Shown in pieces: positions 4,075 to 54,187 of a stretch of DNA of 64,000 nucleotides. The first letter of the stretch is position 1; each line of letters opens with the position of its first letter. Location: NCBI GenBank assembly GCA_016715065.1, contig JADKBN010000002.1, forward strand, positions 212,286 through 276,285, given 5' to 3'. Source of the stretch: Fibrobacterota bacterium (GTDB taxonomy: Bacteria > Fibrobacterota > Fibrobacteria > UBA5070). The position numbers and the translations under genes were made by a program. The notes under the pieces were generated by a model, which worked only from the letters and a program-made list of their open reading frames with translations, had not been told where the DNA came from and did no database searches.

Positions 4075-7000
4075 GGGGATCGCCTCGATTCCATCCAGGT
4101 GCGCACACGGCGATCCAAATCCGACGAATCGGCGTGGGCACCACAGGTCCAGATGCCGTGATCGGCCGTGGCGGGATCGGCGAAGGCCCGCAGATAAACC
4201 ACCACCCCGCCACCCCAGGATTCATGGGGCTTCAATGCGCGCGCGACGGATTGCCCATAGAGTTTGCCTTGGAGGTCGTAGCCGTGCGAACGCACCGATT
4301 CGTCCAAGGCTTCGGCGTTCCAAAGCGCCATGCTGGTGGTCTTCCAATCCAGGACATACCACTTGGATTCGTGGCGGAAGAGAAGGTCGATGTACCCCAC
4401 CATCCAACCGCGCGGTGCCTCGTGCGGCTTGGATGGGCCGCCAGCGGCGCCCACCGGCCAATGGAATTCCACCTCGGGCAGGCGGTCGGAGGCCGGCAGG
4501 TCGCAGAGGCGAACGCATGCCCCGCCGGGAAGTTCCATGGGTTGGAGCAGGACCGAGCGCAACAAGGTGACAATTTTTGGGGACATGGACGCATCCATTC
4601 CATGGGCGGACAAGGTGCCGGCGACCTCCCGTTCCCGCATCGGAAGGGTGGCGTCGTCGTGCACCCAGGCCAGACTCGAACCCGGAGACATCCAATCTTC
4701 CAGGATCTCGTGCAGGCAGTCGCCCGTGCGCGCGCCGCGCGGAAGCCACTCGTCGGCCGGCGCCGCCGTTGGCAGGGATGGATTTTCCGTCTCCGTCTCT
4801 TCGGAACGTTCCAGGCGCTCCCCCAAGGCATGGCTCTCCGGAACGGGAGCGTGGATGTCCGCCGTGACCTGGGTGAAGGACGTCTGCAACCGCGTCCGCG
4901 AAAGCAAGCGCAGGTCGGACAGATCCTGCCATCCGTGTGCCGTTGCCGGCGGTTCTTCCGTCCGCCGCGTTCCCGTCGGGGCTTCCAGAGGCTCCGGGGC
5001 CTGGTCCAAAAGGGCGATCCGGCTGCTCGCGTCCAGGCAGGGCCGGGCGAGATCGGATAGGGGGTCCAATGGCTTTTCCCTGTCGTTGAGGTGGCAAGGA
5101 ATCGCCAAGAGCAGTTTGGGGCGCGTGGCCGCGACATACACGAGTCGTCGCGTCTCCTGGTCCTTCTGCCGTTTGGCGATGGCCTTCACTTCTTCCACCG
5201 CATCGCGCAACGGGGTCTTGTCCGCCTTGCGTCCGGGAGCCGGGATGCAACCGGGCATCGCCTTGCGGCGGGAGCTTTCGGGATCGATCCAGGTGTACAC
5301 CGGGTGGCTGTTGCTTCCCCGCGAAGCACCCAGGAACACCACCGGGAACTCCAGCCCCTTGGAAACGTGCATGGTCAAAATCTGTACGCGGCCGCGGTCG
5401 GTGGCGCGGGCCATCAGGTTGCGATCGTCCGGGGCGTCTTCCAGTCCGTTGTCGATCCTGTCCAGGTGTTCGGCCAGCTCCTCCATCCCGCCACCGCCAG
5501 TCACCAGGAATTCCAATGCGTGTTGGCAGACCTGGCGCAGGTCCATCCACTCCCGGTCGCCCATCGGTCCTGACAAGATCCGTGCGCTCGCCGGGCCCTC
5601 CTGCGACAGGAGCCGGAACAGGCGTGCCCACCGCGCTTTGCGGGACAGGAATCGCGCTTCTTCCAGCAAGTCGTCCCGTCCGTCCAACAAGCGCGTGGCC
5701 AGAGCCATGGAGCGCCTCGATGCATCGGTGGGTGATCCGCAGAGGGCCAACAAGACGGTTCGTACTTCGAGCGCGGCGCGCGAGCGGAACACGCCTTCCT
5801 GCTTGTACAGCGCCCAGGGGATGGCGGCGCGATCGAAGGCGCGACGGAACGGGTTGGCCATGGACTTCGCGCTGACCACCACGGCGAAGTCGCTCCAATC
5901 CAGCACACGATCCTTCCACTGGTCTCCTTCCGGAACGGAAACAAGACGCCCCTTCAGGCCGAGGATCCATTCGGCGCATTGCCTGGCGTATTCCGCCCTG
6001 GCCGGAGCGGTCTTCCCTTGGAAGGGATGGATCCGCACGGGAGCGCGGCCCAGGTCTCCCGGTGGGGGATGCGGTGCCGGGGAGCGCGGGGGCGATGCCG
6101 CCCGGTTGGCGTGTTCGTACCGGATCCCCCCGTCCTGGAACCAGTCCTGGTGGTCCGCGTGGAGGATCAGGTCGTTGATGCCTTCGATGAGATCCGGCGA
6201 CGTGCGCCAATTGGTCTCCAGCGGCTGGCACACCGCGCCATGCGCTGACAATTCCTGACATGCATCCAGGTAGGTGTGGACATCGGCTCCCTGGAAGGAG
6301 TAGATGGACTGCTTCGGGTCGCCCACCAGATAGAGGTTCCCCGGCGGGGTCGTTCCCTTTTCCAGAAACAGGCTGCGGAAGATCTTCCATTGCAGAGGCG
6401 ATGTGTCCTGGAACTCGTCCACGATTCCGACCTTGAGCGTTCCTCGCAACAACGTGCGGAACTCGTCGCGCTCCAAGGCGCCCACCATGAAGGCGAGCAT
6501 GTCCTGGTAGGAAAGCCTTCCGCGGACGGCTTTGCGGGTGCGATGGAGGGAGGTGGCCTGGATCGCCCAGGCGACTTGGAACCGGGCGCACAGAACCACA
6601 TCCTGCTCGCTTCGCGGATCCGGCACGGGGTCCAGGAGGGAAGCCGGGTGGATGTCGGCATCCTGCAGCAGGGCCAGGGAAAGGTCCAAGGCGCCTTTGA
6701 TCTGGGCATCCGGCGATCTGCAATTCCAGGCCCGCGCGAACAGATCGGGATGCCGGAAATCGCCTTTCCACGAATCGTCGCGCAGCGCTTCGCGCAGCGC
6801 CTGTTCCAGCCCTTCCTCGTCGTCGGAAAGCTCGGGTGAAAACGAAATCCCCGACTCGAATGGAAATTGTCGCAGGATGCGCAGGCAAGCCGAATGGATG
6901 GTCCCGATCCACGCCTCGTGCATTTCGCGCAGGTTGGCTTCCAGATGGGCCTTGACGGGGCCTTGCGCCTTGGCGGCGGCCTCGGTCAGGCGTTTGCGCA

Positions 7001-40127: not shown

Positions 40128-40310
40128 CTTGGTTATCCTTTGCCCGCCTTCGGGTCTGCATGAATGCAGGTGCGCAAGCACCGGGAATGCCGTGAAAGAC
40201 GGCAGCGGACCAGCCACTGTGAAGGGAGAAACCCATTCGCCACGAGCCACTGGAGAGATCCGGGAAGGCGGCGAGAATCGGGGCCCTGAGCCAGGAGACC
40301 TACCCAGAGG
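40128..40310 (+). promoter_or_regulatory. Cobalamin (adenosylcobalamin) riboswitch
   Basis: AGGTGCGCAAGCACCGGGAA...GTGAAAGACGGC...GCCACTGTGAAGGGAGAAACC...GCCACTGG...CCGGGAAGG...AGCCAGGAGACCTACCC (B12 box) directly upstream of the TonB-dependent receptor gene. Confidence 0.7.
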
Positions 40311-40361
40311 CGCCGTTCCAAAAGGAGCGGCTTTCTTCCATGCCTCTGGAAACAGGCGGGG

Positions 40362-42341
40362 ATGTTCCGAATCGCAACTTCCATTTTCGTGATGGCTCCG
40401 TCCCTGGCACTGGCCCAGGTGGACTCCGCCAATCCGCCAGTGGACTCCCTTCCCGCACCTCGGGAAGCACGGCTGCAGGAGCGCGTGGTCGCCTCCTCCG
40501 TGCACCGAAATGGTGTGCGCACCATCGGCCGCGAGGAATTGGCCGGAGCAGCGAACCTCGCCCGATTGCTGTCTCGCGAGAGTGGGGTACAGATCCGCCA
40601 AGCGGGGGGATTGGGCAGCTACACCACGGCCTCGCTGCACGCCTCGCCGGTCCAACAGGTGGAAGTGTGGATGGATGGTGTGCCCATGGGGGGATCGACC
40701 GGATCGGTGGTGGACCTGGGGCCGGTGCCGCTGGACGGGCTGGAAAAGGTGGAAATTCGCCAAGCCGGTAGCGCGGGAGCGTTCGGAGCACCACGGATCG
40801 ATCTGCAATCGCGCTCGGGGTGGGCGCAACGAGGCGCCAGCTTGCGCATGGCTTCCTATGGGGAAAAAGGCGCCAGTGGCTGGTGGGGGGATGAACAGGG
40901 CATCGCCACCGTTTCCGCGTGGTGGGAGGCTTCCCAAAACGACTATCCGTTTCCGTGGGACAACGGGACCCGGTACAACAGGTCCGATGACCACATGGTG
41001 AGGCTCTCCAACAACGATTACGAAGGGCGCGGTGCGGCGTTTCGGTGGCGCCCCGCCGCCTCGTGGGATGTCCTGGCGCGGCTGGATGATTCTCGTCGCG
41101 GGATCAGCGCGCCCGGATGGGTCGATCCGCTGGCGAGGCTGGATGGAACCTCCGCGCTGGGGTTCGCCCGATGGGTGGGCGAGTCGGAAACCAAGCCCTC
41201 CGTGGAGGCGTCGGCGCGATGGTTCAAATCCTCCTGGAACGACCCCAACCGCACGGCGGGGTGGGATGTCGATCGCGCCGCCAGCGAACAGGCGTGGGAC
41301 GCGAAGGCCAAGGCGTCCCTGGCGCGCGAGCGCGGTGGCTGGCTGGATGGCGAGGTGACAGGAAATGTCCGACTTGAAACCAGCGAGCGCGAAAGCACCG
41401 GCAGCGCCGACGTGGCCGTGACTCCGTCCGGAACCAGAGCCACATGGGGTGGCCAGATGGTCTGGAACGGTCAATCCGAATCCGCTCGCTGGGGATCCCA
41501 ACTGGGGGCGAGCAAGGACTGGATCCTGGATACGCGCGACTGGACGGAATCCTTGGGGGATGTGTCGCAAATCGACGAAATGGAAACCTCCTGGGAGTCC
41601 TATCGTGTGCATGGCCGGTTGTGGGGACGGCCCTGGCCGGGCCTGGAGGGCTGGGTGGCCTCCAGTTACCGCGAGCGCGCACCGGATTTTCGCGAGTGGA
41701 TGGGCGACAACGGCTACACGCTCCAGACGCCTGACCTTCTGGCGGAACGATCCATGTCCCTGGAGCTCGGGGCCAAGACGCAGCGCGGCGATTGGAGCGC
41801 GAATATTTCCGGTTGGGCGCAACGGTACATGGATCCGATCGAAACTTTCCACAAAGGGGCAAGCCCTCTGGTCGCCCACCGAAATGCGGCTGGATACGAT
41901 GCATTCGGGTTGGACGGGCGTGCTGGATGGTCCACCTCATGGATCCGAGCCACCGCGCAGGGGTCCCTGCAATCGGCGCGGGTCTCCGACGACAATCCCG
42001 CTTTGGACGGAAAACGTCCACAACGGTTTCCGCTTTGGAAATCCGGCATGGATGCTTCCATCGGGCCATGGAGGGGATGGCGCCTCGGAGGGGACCTGTC
42101 CTTGGCCGGCTCCACCTACGCCTCGGCGCTCAATCGCCCGACCGACCTTCGCGAAGGGAAGCTGGACCTGGGAGCTTGGCTTCGCTGGAAGCGAGGCGTG
42201 ATCGGGGCCAGCGCGCAGGTGGACAACATCCTGGATGAACATGCCCAGGATTGGGAGGACCTGCCCCAACCGGGTAGGCGCTTTTCCATCCGACTGGATT
42301 TCGAATTTTCCAAACCGACCAACACGAGGAACGAAAGATGA
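40362..42341 (+). CDS. TonB-dependent outer-membrane receptor (BtuB-like, B12/corrinoid uptake)
   Basis: Signal peptide MFRIATSIFVMAPSLALA; plug domain; C-terminal beta-barrel ending in an aromatic residue; controlled by the B12 riboswitch. Confidence 0.8.
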   Translation: MFRIATSIFVMAPSLALAQVDSANPPVDSLPAPREARLQERVVASSVHRNGVRTIGREELAGAANLARLLSRESGVQIRQAGGLGSYTTASLHASPVQQVEVWMDGVPMGGSTGSVVDLGPVPLDGLEKVEIRQAGSAGAFGAPRIDLQSRSGWAQRGASLRMASYGEKGASGWWGDEQGIATVSAWWEASQNDYPFPWDNGTRYNRSDDHMVRLSNNDYEGRGAAFRWRPAASWDVLARLDDSRRGISAPGWVDPLARLDGTSALGFARWVGESETKPSVEASARWFKSSWNDPNRTAGWDVDRAASEQAWDAKAKASLARERGGWLDGEVTGNVRLETSERESTGSADVAVTPSGTRATWGGQMVWNGQSESARWGSQLGASKDWILDTRDWTESLGDVSQIDEMETSWESYRVHGRLWGRPWPGLEGWVASSYRERAPDFREWMGDNGYTLQTPDLLAERSMSLELGAKTQRGDWSANISGWAQRYMDPIETFHKGASPLVAHRNAAGYDAFGLDGRAGWSTSWIRATAQGSLQSARVSDDNPALDGKRPQRFPLWKSGMDASIGPWRGWRLGGDLSLAGSTYASALNRPTDLREGKLDLGAWLRWKRGVIGASAQVDNILDEHAQDWEDLPQPGRRFSIRLDFEFSKPTNTRNER

Positions 42342-43975: not shown

Positions 43976-44024
43976 GCCGTTCGTCCTGAGGAGGCCCTTC
44001 GGGCCGTCTCGAAGGGCGAACGGG
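43976..44024 (+). repeat. REP-like palindromic repeat family B, copy A (CCGTTCGTCCTGAGGAG...CGTCTCGAAGGGCGAACGG)
   Basis: One of 6 copies, all within 43.9-48.3 kb. Confidence 0.6.
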
Positions 44025-44065
44025 AAGGGGGTGTTCGGATGGTTGGGCGATCTCGCCTGCGCCAA

Positions 44066-44110
44066 ACGTTCGCTCCGCCGCCCTTCGAGACGCCTCTCCG
44101 AGGCTCCTCA
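44066..44110 (-). repeat. REP-like repeat family B, copy B (inverted relative to copy A, ~40 bp away)
   Basis: CCGCCGCCCTTCGAGACG...CTCCTCAGGACGAACGG. Confidence 0.6.
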
Positions 44111-44161
44111 GGACGAACGGAGCGACTTGTTAAGACTCGGCGAATCGCCGGTGGTATCCGC

Positions 44162-47325: not shown

Positions 47326-47372
47326 TCCGTTCGTCCTGAGGAGGGGCGCAGCCTCGTCTCGAAGGGCGGAAG
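47326..47372 (+). repeat. REP-like repeat family B, copy D (between cobT and cobS; it ends at the cobS ribosome-binding site)
   Basis: TCCGTTCGTCCTGAGGAGGGGCGCAGCCTCGTCTCGAAGGGCGGA. Confidence 0.6.
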
Positions 47373-48250: not shown

Positions 48251-48295
48251 CCGTCGCCCTTCGAGACGCGCCTGCGGCGCTCCTCAGGACGAACG
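48251..48295 (-). repeat. REP-like repeat family B, copy F (inverted relative to copy E)
   Basis: CCGTCGCCCTTCGAGACGCGCCTGCGGCGCTCCTCAGGACGAACGG. Confidence 0.6.
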
Positions 48296-48319
48296 GCGCG
48301 ATTTTTGTCCATCCAGAAC

Positions 48320-50267: not shown

Positions 50268-51536
50268 ATGCGCTTTTGTCTTCTTTTTGCGTTTTTCCAA
50301 GTGCCCGTCTTGGCCGCCGGCCTACCCGTCACCTTCGAGACCGGAAGCGGAGCGAAGGCTGCGCAAGTGAACCAGAACTTCAAGTACCTGGACAGCGCCG
50401 TAAACAACCACGCGAAGCAACTGGAAAACAAAGCGGATCAATCCGCCGTGCTGGGAATTGTCTCCATCGTGGGCGCCAAGGTGGACACCGCCGCCTTGAC
50501 CACACGATTGACCAAGTACGTCGCCACCACGGGATTGTCTTCCTACGCGACCAGTGCGACCCTGACCACCGGCTTGGGCGCCAAGGTGGATACGGCCAAA
50601 CTGGCCGCCGCATTGGGCAAAGAGGTGGATACCGCAGCGCTCACCACCCGATTGGGCGACTATGCGAAAACCTCCGCTCTGAGCGATTACGCGAAGACCT
50701 CGGCGCTTTCCGGCTACGCGACCTCTGCGGCGCTCACCACGGGCCTGGCGACCAAACCAGATCGCTCCGAGGTGATGGTCGTGGGCAAAACGGGCGCGGT
50801 GATCCCGACTTCCGTGGCGGTGAGTGGAACGGATCCGGAGATCAAAGCAGGGCTGTTCCACGCTGCTGAGTGGGCAATTGACTTTCCACACGGACACATC
50901 GCGACCTCCTACGGGTTTCCAGCCTGGTACGTGGAGGCGAACTCCGAGGATGGCTTCCGGATCGGCCGGTATGGCGGCGGTCCCACGAGCCCCATCTTTC
51001 ATCTCGAGATCCTGCAGGGTACGGGCATCACGCTGCGTGGCGCCGTCAAGACCACGGATTCTCTGGTGGTGGGCAAAAACTTGCGCGTAACGGGAAAGAT
51101 CACCGCCGTTGCGGCGGGATCTGTCATTCCGGATTATGTCTTCGAGCCGGAGTACAAGCTTGCAACCCTTCGCGAGGTGGAATCCTTCACCCAAGCCAAC
51201 AAGCATCTGCCGGATGTTCCAAGCGCGGCAGAAATCAAAGCCGGGGGACTGGACCTGACGGAGATGAACCTCACGCTTTTGCGCAAGGTGGAAGAACTGA
51301 CTCTCCACGCCATCGCCCAGGAAAAGCGCATCCAAAATCCTGGAAACCCTGCTGACAAAGTGACCATAGCCACCTGGAAGGGCCCCAGGAAACTAAGTGG
51401 GCATCCGGAGGCCGTCGCTCCCTCACGGCAGGGGATTGCCTCGGGGATCGCGGAGGTATTTACTTTCAGGGCGTCAATCAACCGCCATCTCCCGGAGCTT
51501 CCATGCACACCAACCTCTTGCTGCTTGCCTCACTGA
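50268..51536 (+). CDS. Secreted protein with a tail-fiber-like C-terminal domain (paralog 2), with a possible frameshift at its 3' end
   Basis: Signal peptide MRFCLLFAFFQVPVLAA; KVDTAALTTRL repeats; C-terminal IPDYVFEPEYKLATLREVESFTQANKHLPDVPSA...LTLHAIAQEKRI followed by an atypical 65-aa extension that overlaps the next gene. Confidence 0.55.
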   Translation: MRFCLLFAFFQVPVLAAGLPVTFETGSGAKAAQVNQNFKYLDSAVNNHAKQLENKADQSAVLGIVSIVGAKVDTAALTTRLTKYVATTGLSSYATSATLTTGLGAKVDTAKLAAALGKEVDTAALTTRLGDYAKTSALSDYAKTSALSGYATSAALTTGLATKPDRSEVMVVGKTGAVIPTSVAVSGTDPEIKAGLFHAAEWAIDFPHGHIATSYGFPAWYVEANSEDGFRIGRYGGGPTSPIFHLEILQGTGITLRGAVKTTDSLVVGKNLRVTGKITAVAAGSVIPDYVFEPEYKLATLREVESFTQANKHLPDVPSAAEIKAGGLDLTEMNLTLLRKVEELTLHAIAQEKRIQNPGNPADKVTIATWKGPRKLSGHPEAVAPSRQGIASGIAEVFTFRASINRHLPELPCTPTSCCLPH

Positions 51537-53038
51537 CCACCGTCTCGGTGGCGGGCGTACCCAACACATTCAAGATCAGCGACCCAGCCAAAGCCGAACT
51601 GGTCAACGCAAACTTCAAGTACTTGGATAGCGCGGTGGGCACCAAAGCAGACACTGCCGCCCTCAGCGCCCTGAAGGCAAGCATTCCTGCCAGTGTGAAC
51701 ATCGGTGGCAAGGTGGACACCGCCGCGCTCACCACCCGCTTGAATGGCTATGCCGCCGCGGGCACTGTTGCCGCTGCTTTGGGTGCCAAAGCCGACACCA
51801 CCGCGCTGAACGCGGTCAAGGCGAGCATTCCCGTGGGTGTGAACATCGGTGGCAAGGTGGACACCGCCGCACTCACCGTGCGGCTGGCCGGTTACGCTCC
51901 CGCCGGGGCTCTGGCAAATTTTGCCACGACCAGTTCCTTGGCGGCCTATGCGACCTCCGCTGCCCTGACCAATTGACTGGGCGCCAAAGCCGACACTACC
52001 GCATTGAACGCGGTGAAGGCGAGCATTCCTGCCGGCGTGAACATCGGCGGCAAAGTGGACACCGCCGCGCTCACCACGCGCCTGACCAGCTACGCCAAGT
52101 CCACCGATCTTGCCACCTACGCCAAGTCCACCGACCTGACTGGGTTCGCCAAGACAACGGATCTTTCTGGATATGCCACCGCCACCTCTCTAGCCAACTA
52201 TGCCCCGCTGACCACTCTTGCCAGTTACGCGAAGTCCACCGACCTCGCTGGCTATGCCACCACGACATCGCTGGCCACCTACGCGCCGCTCACCACTCTC
52301 GCCAGCTACGCCAAGACCACAGATTTGTCGGTCTATGCCAAGACTGCCGCCCTTGCTTCTTACGCCACCACCGCCGCCGTGGCCGGAAAAATGAACACCG
52401 CCGATTACGTGGCGAGCGGTCACCTCAAGGCATTGGGCGGGATCACTGGTGGGCGAGGGATGAGCGGGTCGTTCGTGGGGAGCAACCTCATCCTGGATAC
52501 AAACGAACTCCGGATGGAAAACGCGGGGAACTTCACCCTTCTCAACAACACCTCGCTCATTTGGCGCCAGGAGTACAGTGGATGGACGATCAAAACTGGC
52601 GATGACTTTAGGATTGTTAGAAACACCCGGTCATTCGACTTTACCGGTTTGATCCTCACAGACTTCAAGGCGGAATTTCCCAACAGCGTGGCGATCGGTG
52701 GAGAATTCACAGTCGCTGGTGCGACGCAATTTTCCGGTGACGTGAAGATCGACGGCGCCCTGACGGTCCAGGGTGTGAACGTTCCCGATTACGTGTTCGA
52801 GTCTGATTACAAGCTGGCCCCGTTGGCTGAAGTCGAAGCCTACACCCAGGCCAACAAGCACCTGCCGGAAGTGCCCAGCGCCAAGGAAATCGAGGCTGGC
52901 GGAATGGATCTGGCCAAGATGAACCTGACACTGCTTCGCAAGGTGGAGGAGCTCACCCTCCATGCCATCGCTCAGGAAAAGCAGATCAAGAGCCAGAGCG
53001 ACCGGCTCCAAGCCCTGGAATCCCGGCTGGCCAACTGA
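51503..53038 (+). pseudogene. Tail-fiber-like paralog 3, interrupted by an in-frame TGA at 51974-51976 (ORFs 51503-51976 and 52004-53038 are in the same frame)
   Basis: Signal peptide MHTNLLLLASLTTVSVAG; repeated ALNAVKASIP.GVNIGGKVDTAALT units on both sides of the stop; C-terminal VPDYVFESDYKLAPLAEVEAYTQANKHLPEVPSA...LTLHAIAQEKQI. Confidence 0.6.
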
Positions 53039-53071: not shown

Positions 53072-53105
53072 CTGCCACGAGGGAAGGCAATGCGCCTTCC
53101 CTTTT
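53072..53105 (+). terminator. Rho-independent terminator after tail-fiber paralog 3
   Basis: GGGAAGGCAATGCGCCTTCCC followed by TTTTT. Confidence 0.55.
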
Positions 53106-54187
53106 TAGTTTGCTTTCTGTGCCAACTGCCCACACGCAGCCAGGATATCCTGGCCCTTGGGCTTTCGCAAATACACCTGCAATCCCGCGTCCACCAGCCG
53201 GCTCTCGAAGTCCAGGATTTCTTCCTGGGTCGGGGCACGCAAGGCGATGTCGTCGGCGGCGTTGAGCGGGATCAGGTTGATCTTGCAGTGGCGGCCACCC
53301 AGCAAACCCGCAAGCTCGCGCGCGGCTTGGCTGGTGCAGGTCACATCTCCAATCAAAACGTATTCGTAGGTGATCGGCCAGTTGGCCGCGATGCTCCACG
53401 AATCGCCAGCCAACAGAAGATCGTGGATCGGGTGGCGGCGGTTCACGGGCATCACCTTGTTGCGCATCTCGTCGTTGGAGCTGTTGAGGGAGATCGCCAG
53501 GTGGTATTGCGGGGCCTCTTCGGCCAAGCGATCGATACCGGCAATCAACCCTGATGTGCTGATGGTGATGCGACGCGGCGACATCCCCAGGCCTTTGGGA
53601 TGCGTGATGACTTCGCATGCTTGCAGCACATTGGAAAGATTGTTCAGCGGCTCGCCCATGCCCATGAACACGATGTTGGTGAGCTGAGGCTGTTGGGTGT
53701 CGCGTAGATAGCGCCGCACGTGAGCGACCTGTTGCAAAATCTCACCGTGCGAAAGATTGCGCTGAAAGCCCATCTGGGCGGTCCGGCAGAAGGTGCATCC
53801 CATGGCGCACCCCACTTGCGAACTCACACAGGCGGTCCGCCGATCCTCCTCCGGGATCATGACGGTCTCAAAACGCTTGCCGTCAGCGTCCTGGAAGGCC
53901 CACTTGGCGGTGCCATCGGAGGAAACCTGTTGATCTACCTGATCCAGCGCTCCGAGCTTCATCTGGCTTGCCAGCAAGGCACGGAGGTCTTTGGGGAGAT
54001 TGGTCATCTGGTCGTAAGAGGTGGCAAAATGTGTCCATAGCCACTCCTGGATCTGGGCGGCACGGAACTTGGGCTGCTTTTGGTCGGCAAGCCAGTTCTG
54101 GAGTTCGGCCGTGGTCAGTTCGGAAAGGGTCTTGGTTCGTCCGCGAGCGTCTGTTGGAGTGTGCACGCGGGCCAAGATACCTAACAA
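53105..54187 (-). CDS. rlmN: 23S rRNA (adenine2503-C2)-methyltransferase RlmN (radical SAM)
   Basis: CAMGCTFCRT cluster motif; MGMGEPL; RlmN length. Confidence 0.85.
   Translation of the reverse strand: MLGILARVHTPTDARGRTKTLSELTTAELQNWLADQKQPKFRAAQIQEWLWTHFATSYDQMTNLPKDLRALLASQMKLGALDQVDQQVSSDGTAKWAFQDADGKRFETVMIPEEDRRTACVSSQVGCAMGCTFCRTAQMGFQRNLSHGEILQQVAHVRRYLRDTQQPQLTNIVFMGMGEPLNNLSNVLQACEVITHPKGLGMSPRRITISTSGLIAGIDRLAEEAPQYHLAISLNSSNDEMRNKVMPVNRRHPIHDLLLAGDSWSIAANWPITYEYVLIGDVTCTSQAARELAGLLGGRHCKINLIPLNAADDIALRAPTQEEILDFESRLVDAGLQVYLRKPKGQDILAACGQLAQKAN

Follow-up and report, generated by a model that had tools for sequence, protein, structure and literature searches.

Natural premature-stop alleles are known for inlA, the internalin A gene of Listeria monocytogenes, a surface-protein gene of which several inactivating alleles occur within one species. 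Surface proteins can also vary in phase, as with Neisseria opa and Haemophilus lic, through slippage in simple sequence repeats. Here we describe an interrupted gene for a fibre-like, repeat-rich and probably secreted protein in an uncultured Fibrobacterota bacterium of the lineage UBA5070. The stretch analysed, hereafter the window, comprises 64,000 nucleotides (nt) of contig JADKBN010000002.1 (GenBank assembly GCA_016715065.1, positions 212,286 to 276,285), part of a long-read metagenome-assembled genome (MAG), and the gene in question (paralogue 3 of the family in the window) carries a single in-frame TGA. We conclude that this TGA is a naturally segregating nonsense allele, the most likely outcome being a truncated product of 157 amino acids (aa) and loss of function. 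It adds a further example to a known class of events and leaves current understanding unchallenged.

Premature-stop alleles of inlA have been surveyed (PMC12583724). They offer the closest parallel to the present case, in that a single-nucleotide nonsense change truncates a secreted, repeat-containing surface protein and does so at appreciable natural frequency; the two differ in that phenotype, anchoring and selective context are known for inlA, whereas here the host is uncultured and the protein family uncharacterised. With opa and lic, the locus shares a surface-exposed repeat protein that would be on in some close relatives and off in others. Here, however, the switch site has neither a homopolymer nor a short tandem tract (none was seen at 51960-51990), the base change is of a kind, a transversion, that does not revert at a high rate, and no stop-carrying silent donor was seen among the homologous motif copies, all of which encode glycine at this position. 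On/off variation within the repeat array, which an earlier note on this sequence had offered as one reading of the stop, finds no footing in these observations.

As that note had described, two open reading frames (ORFs) lie in one frame with a lone TGA between them and homologous repeat sequence on both sides. Their starts are 52004-51503 = 501 = 167 x 3 nt apart, and the one-frame translation of the gene reads ...AAYATSAALTN*LGAKADTTALNAVKASIPAGVNIGG..., with the codons ACC AAT TGA CTG GGC around the stop. Both halves are covered by an intact allele, P0124, a 550-aa protein of 98% identity that was found among proteins clustered at 90% identity with the downstream ORF and is encoded on a Logan contig (L005, run ERR14653841). 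P0124 reads ...SAALTNGLGAKADT..., giving TNGLGAK against TN*LGAK in the window, and its near-identity along the whole length indicates that the homology flanking the stop is not a matter of chance. At the DNA level, L005 reads CTGACCAAT GGA CTGGGCGCC, whereas the window and six further contigs (L004 and L006-L010) read CTGACCAAT TGA CTGGGCGCC; AAT GGA CTG in L005 and AAT TGA CTG in the window are equal in length and differ by one base, and the stretch that runs from the stop codon to the terminal TGA is present in five haplotypes and is 1062 nt long in each. Because the intact allele is of the same length and differs at 51974 only, the comparison identifies the premature TGA as a point substitution, a G>T transversion at 51974 that converts GGA (Gly) to TGA with length unchanged, and not as the product of the 3-bp insertion that the earlier note had proposed. 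The upstream repeat cited as showing that insertion reads VAAALGAK against LTN*LGAK, the stop standing opposite a residue (A) with no gap. In an alignment of the paralogues, the stop stands opposite glycine (YATSATLTTGLGAK vs YATSAALTN*LGAK). Glycine is also found in all eight of the other copies of the motif [AS][AT]L-T-x-G-L-[GA]-x-K (from the window, L001, L005, L006 and L011), and an orthologue of 62% identity, P0002, reads SGLGGK, NGLGGK and GGLGGK at the equivalent places.

The premature TGA, as read from the assembled contigs of each data set, is present in four of them: the NCBI MAG; SRR11674008 (Logan contig L004, 1197 of 1198 nt identical to the window); the European Nucleotide Archive (ENA) assembly ERZ965215 of run ERR712368 (L006, L008 and L010); and the ENA assembly ERZ27280341 (L007 and L009). 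An identical 157-aa truncation is predicted in the ENA assemblies (P0122 and P0125). Comparison with related strains, which the earlier note had recommended, was thus informative, with TGA recurring in other assemblies and GGA found in L005, and on these contigs the TGA segregates in natural populations beside at least one GGA allele. No exact match was returned for the product of the 157-aa ORF, the 422-aa product of paralogue 2 or the predicted downstream protein P0121. The DNA around the stop, scanned for as an exact pattern, had 0 matches in JGI metagenomes, and a protein-based JGI scan recovered relatives of at most 62% identity and no further alleles.

In our reading, the G>T change at 51974 turned a conserved glycine codon into a stop in a gene of a chromosomal family of secreted, repeat-rich, fibre-like proteins. 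Translation would then end after residue 157, leaving a signal peptide, the N-terminal domain and two repeat units; lack of the stalk, the beta-rich domain and the conserved C-terminal helical domain most likely makes the allele null or strongly hypomorphic. The loss may be tolerated or favoured, given that neighbouring paralogues exist and that surface fibres of this type commonly come under diversifying or loss-of-function selection. The nonsense pseudogene listed as one option in the earlier note thus survives, as a nonsense allele or incipient pseudogene, and is the best explanation of the data. The annotated downstream ORF (52004-53038, TTG start; 344 aa, identical to MBK8800676.1, locus tag IPN71_01190, from a MAG contig of 811 kb) is the tail of an interrupted gene of 511 codons. 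Predicted starts of this tail vary, P0121 beginning at TTG 52004 and P0001 at GTG 52013.

The contigs place the TGA on at least two flanking haplotypes. It has window-type flanks in the window, in L004, upstream in L006 and L007 and downstream in L009, and L005-type flanks upstream in L008 and downstream in L010; together L008 and L010 equal the GGA haplotype, L005, from ~51690 to ~52710 save for the TGA base itself. Across the 353 downstream codons, synonymous to non-synonymous differences number 17:4 between the window and L005, 9:2 between the window and either L009 or L010, and 6:4 between L009 and L010, and none of the five haplotypes has an indel or a second stop there. Single-nucleotide polymorphism (SNP) differences fall in blocks that are reshuffled among the haplotypes, in a mosaic. 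Taken together, these patterns show that purifying selection formerly acted on the gene and that it recombines by way of short tracts. The synonymous excess would give no verdict on selection after the stop arose, because a conversion tract of less than ~320 nt (bounded by position 51852 and downstream codon 65) can put a young TGA on old haplotypes. The clean downstream frame probably reflects a young mutation and short-tract recombination between haplotypes, rather than continued translation.

Some observations weigh against a simple null allele. In the four haplotypes that carry TGA, the 353 downstream codons are clean and their differences mostly synonymous, and if the TGA were older than the downstream variation, purifying selection on that frame would persist. 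TGA is found in four of the five data sets, a frequency unusually high for an allele that is simply a deleterious null; how far the samples are independent is only partly known, since SRR11674008 may share the project of the MAG (PRJNA629478 is described in the literature as a Danish wastewater treatment plant long-read MAG project). The base that follows the premature TGA is C, and UGA-C is reportedly the weakest termination context in Escherichia coli (Poole, Brown and Tate 1995). Low basal read-through at UGA-C is possible, and nothing marks it as programmed.

These points could be accommodated if the TGA allele were not null, leaky read-through at UGA-C or reinitiation at TTG 52004 or GTG 52013 yielding some downstream protein, and we regard this as unlikely; that the stop is a stable, expression-attenuating allele with the downstream frame still under selection seems to us just as unlikely. 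Such readings would gain from the occurrence of the stop on more than one flanking haplotype, from its majority among the sampled data sets and from the two restart codons lying 28 and 37 nt downstream. No GGAG-like ribosome-binding site precedes either restart codon, however, unlike the true start, and a product restarted there would be without a signal peptide. The 106-nt stretch from the stop is no more stably folded than shuffled sequences (z = 0.15), a search of 51400-52400 against Rfam, which includes selenocysteine insertion sequence (SECIS) elements, gave no match even at E<=10, and TGAC is an ordinary terminator in the window: among 34 long non-overlapping ORFs used as proxies for genes, TGA is the commonest stop (19, against 9 TAG and 6 TAA), and 5 of the 19 TGA-ending proxies end in the context TGAC. 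Mosaic recombination can seat a young TGA on old haplotypes without selection, and the agreement of L008 and L010 with L005 over ~1 kb save one base argues for a recent change. Programmed read-through of stop codons is known from alphavirus and murine leukaemia virus (MuLV)-type systems. The present gene shares with these the UGA followed by C and an in-frame open continuation of 353 codons, but it has no downstream stimulatory structure, its TGAC is a normal terminator, and the stop is not conserved, being a sense codon in a close allele (GGA in L005) and glycine in the orthologues.

A nonsense allele with loss of function is compatible with a further reading, in which the molecular mechanism is the same and the evolutionary meaning differs: positive selection would have favoured loss of the fibre, for instance by letting cells escape a phage or predator for which the fibre is a receptor, and independent knock-outs (the TGA and loss of a start codon) would have risen in frequency. 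We consider both the selected loss and this rise of independent knock-outs improbable, more so than leakiness. The TGA allele is at high frequency, a neighbouring paralogue is deleted in some strains, and there are two different putative lesions, the TGA in seven contigs (window, L004 and L006-L010) and an ATG>AAG change in L005. In the latter, the sole haplotype without TGA, the start codon at 4281-4283 reads AAG behind the same GGAG, so that no sampled haplotype is free of a putatively inactivating change, be it the one or the other. The AAG in L005 is consistent with a gene that is dispensable or counter-selected in this population. It was seen once, though, in a single Logan contig among five sampled data sets, and the L005 ORF is open upstream to a GTG that has no ribosome-binding site (the gene caller extended it by 39 codons), so that this allele may still be translated.

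That either of these processes is at work, UGA-C being kept as the majority allele through a trickle of read-through or reinitiation, or recurrent knock-outs being selected as escape from phage or predators, is in our judgement doubtful, with a small chance of being right. Were one of them true, the paralogue cluster would be a natural on/low/off system of surface variation in an uncultured Fibrobacterota, driven by point mutation and recombination between paralogues. At loci of this kind, phage-host or predator-prey selection is often seen.

That the MAG is simply in error at this position, and the true sequence without a stop, is very improbable, although local assembly quality is imperfect: within the adjacent paralogue, the MAG differs from short-read assemblies by three indels. 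The TGA is not the sequencing error that the earlier note had allowed for, because contigs of three other data sets carry it (SRR11674008, ERZ965215 and ERZ27280341), among them MEGAHIT-style k127 and k141 contigs and a Logan contig. The ends of L006 and L008, only 3 nt past the stop, had raised the suspicion of an assembly problem there, which was rejected. These two k127 contigs end exactly 127 nt after a G/A SNP at 51852 (51852+127 = 51979), the k141 contig L007 ends exactly 141 nt after it (51852+141 = 51993), and L009 and L010 begin directly after it. Because the ends lie at k distance, the breaks are explained as de Bruijn graph branches arising from the 51852 SNP and divergent upstream haplotypes, and not from the TGA site. 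By this evidence the TGA is real DNA and not a sequencing or assembly artefact, which matters for quality control, in that an internal stop in a long-read MAG is here real biology rather than error.

In Gracilibacteria and Absconditabacteria, which reportedly use genetic code 25 (Campbell et al. 2013; Rinke et al. 2013), UGA encodes glycine, a superficial resemblance to a TGA that aligns with a conserved glycine. Recoding of UGA, whether as glycine under code 25 or as selenocysteine, can be practically dismissed and is the least probable of the alternatives, since TGA terminates this very gene (AAC TGA), its L001 orthologues (AAG TGA and AAC TGA) and the majority of ORF proxies, in a window of ~60% G+C in which long ORFs read intact with table 11 and this is the sole such case, and since homologues have glycine and not cysteine at the site, with no SECIS match, no structure in the fold described above and no tRNA gene found in the window.

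The features of the interrupted gene and its paralogues are listed in Table 1.

Table 1. Coordinates of the interrupted gene, its parts and its paralogues within the window.
Feature	Position	Strand	Remarks
Interrupted gene (paralogue 3)	51503..53038	+	511 codons with a single internal TGA; one-frame translation
Premature stop codon, TGA	51974..51976	+	base 51974 is T; G in the intact allele (GGA, Gly)
Upstream ORF, predicted truncated product of 157 aa	51503..51976	+	signal peptide, N-domain, two repeat units
In-frame remainder after the stop	51977..53038	+	353 codons and terminal TGA
Candidate restart codons, TTG (52004) and GTG (52013)	52004..52015	+	chosen by gene callers
~150-nt repeat, three copies (51636, 51780, 51978)	51636..52130	+	repeat family D2
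27-nt (9-aa) repeat array, YAKSTDLAT-like; stalk of the fibre-like protein	52059..52374	+	repeat family D1
Terminator-like hairpin, 10-bp stem, with T-rich tail	53079..53113	+	3' of the gene end
Paralogue 2, adjacent	50268..51536	+	extra C at ~51340 shifts the last 9 codons
Paralogue 1, distant	14417..15934	-	same N-terminal motif and C-terminal domain

A GGAG sequence at 51494-51497 lies 5 nt 5' of the ATG of the interrupted gene. The consensus of the ~150-nt repeat is GxKADTxALxAxKASIPxxVNIGGKVDTAALTxRLxGY, and its third copy begins 2 nt 3' of the premature stop. The hairpin beyond the gene end, itself spanning 53079-53103, was rated strongly terminator-like, and no terminator-like site was found on the + strand between the premature stop and the gene end. 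Upstream of the start, the gene's frame runs for 43-49 codons without a stop, back to the one that ends the preceding paralogue (in L005, L006 and L007, and at 51356-51502 of the window). A read-through fusion with that paralogue was considered and rejected, because openness of this extent is put down to chance in DNA of 60% G+C and because L008 has a second in-frame stop in the intergenic region before the interrupted gene (TGA CCA TAG).

The predicted protein comprises, in order, a signal-peptide-like N-terminus, a conserved N-domain, three repeats of ~48-66 aa, the 9-aa repeats, a beta-rich domain and a helical C-terminal domain. Judged by eye, the N-terminus, MHTNLLLLASLTTVSVAG|VP..., resembles a Sec signal peptide, and the motif VPxTFxxxDPAKAxxVNxNFxxLDSAV recurs family-wide in this part of the protein. 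The C-terminal domain of ~80 residues has 18 invariant columns in 80 homologues (DYVF...HLP..PSA...LL.K.EELTL) and ends in a long helix. Homologues occur in Fibrobacterota and Bacteroidota, nearly all annotated as hypothetical and one named 'tail fiber protein' by its source, and some have collagen repeats (PF01391) at the position of the stalk. Phage tail fibres and the collagen-like BclA of Bacillus are trimeric fibrous surface proteins with variable stalk repeats. The present family resembles them in having an N-terminal anchor motif, a stalk with a variable number of repeats and a C-terminal globular and helical domain, but differs in having chromosomal housekeeping neighbours and in its lack of a significant family or fold match: Pfam gave none above cut-off, NCBIfam and a profile search of PDB sequences gave none that was significant, and for an AlphaFold2 model of the last 217 residues (mean confidence, pLDDT, 72.6) the best Foldseek match in the PDB had E = 0.28. 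In PHROGs, matches were to families of unknown function and, for paralogue 1 only, a weak one to phrog_5342 'tail fiber' (E = 1.3e-4). 'Fibre-like secreted repeat protein' is a fair description on this evidence, whereas the 'tail-fiber' label of the earlier note is not established.

The window holds three members of the family, and the locus is generally unstable, in its gene number, in a chimeric, frameshifted end of paralogue 2 and in the mosaic SNP blocks. An extra paralogue of 340 aa stands between paralogue 2 and the interrupted gene in L005 (3129-4151) and L006 (4849-5871) and is absent from L008 and from the window (51349-51500), which suggests that copy number changed when the conserved regions that encode the C-terminal domain recombined with one another. 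In paralogue 2, an extra C within 51333-51345 (AATCCTGG vs AATCTGG in L008, with a gap there relative to L005 and L006) lengthens the ORF by 58 codons, carrying it over the start of paralogue 3; with the extra C removed, the protein ends ...KRIQNLETLLTK. This 3' tail (...LETLLTK) is that of the 340-aa paralogue absent from the window. The extra C could be a genuine frameshift, sited where recombination joined the sequences, or else an error left over from long-read sequencing. At ~50856 and ~50901, a compensating +1/-1 pair of indels puts ~15 codons of paralogue 2 out of register with L001, L005, L006 and L008 (the window has GLFHAAEWAIDFPHGHIATSYG vs GxSSLxSGQLxxHTDTSATSYG in L005 and L008), and may likewise be real or the result of residual long-read errors. 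The true start of paralogue 1 is likely Met87 of the listed ORF. The cluster is small and differs between strains of a single Fibrobacterota species from wastewater, which vary in the number of genes, in chimeric gene ends and in two kinds of putative knock-out allele.

Upstream of the paralogues are genes for CobT, CobS, a btuF-like Peripla_BP_2 protein and a DUF179 protein, and downstream are RlmN, a VTT/DedA-domain protein and EF-P, so that gene content indicates a chromosomal context and not a prophage. Synteny is conserved in L001, L006, L009 and L010. L001, found in a scan of genome contigs, is a syntenic Fibrobacteria MAG (62% identity) with the gene order periplasmic binding protein, DUF179, two fibre-like paralogues and rlmN; its orthologue is without the repeat that bears the stop site. 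Elsewhere in the window, a cobalamin riboswitch (RF00174, 90.9 bits) lies at 40135-40321 on the + strand, upstream of the ORF at 40362-42341. An element of ~42 nt (CCGTTCGTCCTGAGGAGG...GTCTCGAAGGGCG) occurs in four copies and in both orientations (43977-44018, 44079-44120, 47327-47368 and 48255-48296) at gene boundaries of a TonB-receptor/btuF-like cobalamin-uptake cluster; it is similar to repetitive extragenic palindromic (REP) elements or miniature inverted-repeat transposable elements (MITEs), and some of its copies overlap the predicted N-termini of the ORFs at 44039 and 48224. Finally, a 128-nt direct repeat is present at 16676-16803 and 17687-17814, its two copies 81% identical and 1011 nt apart.

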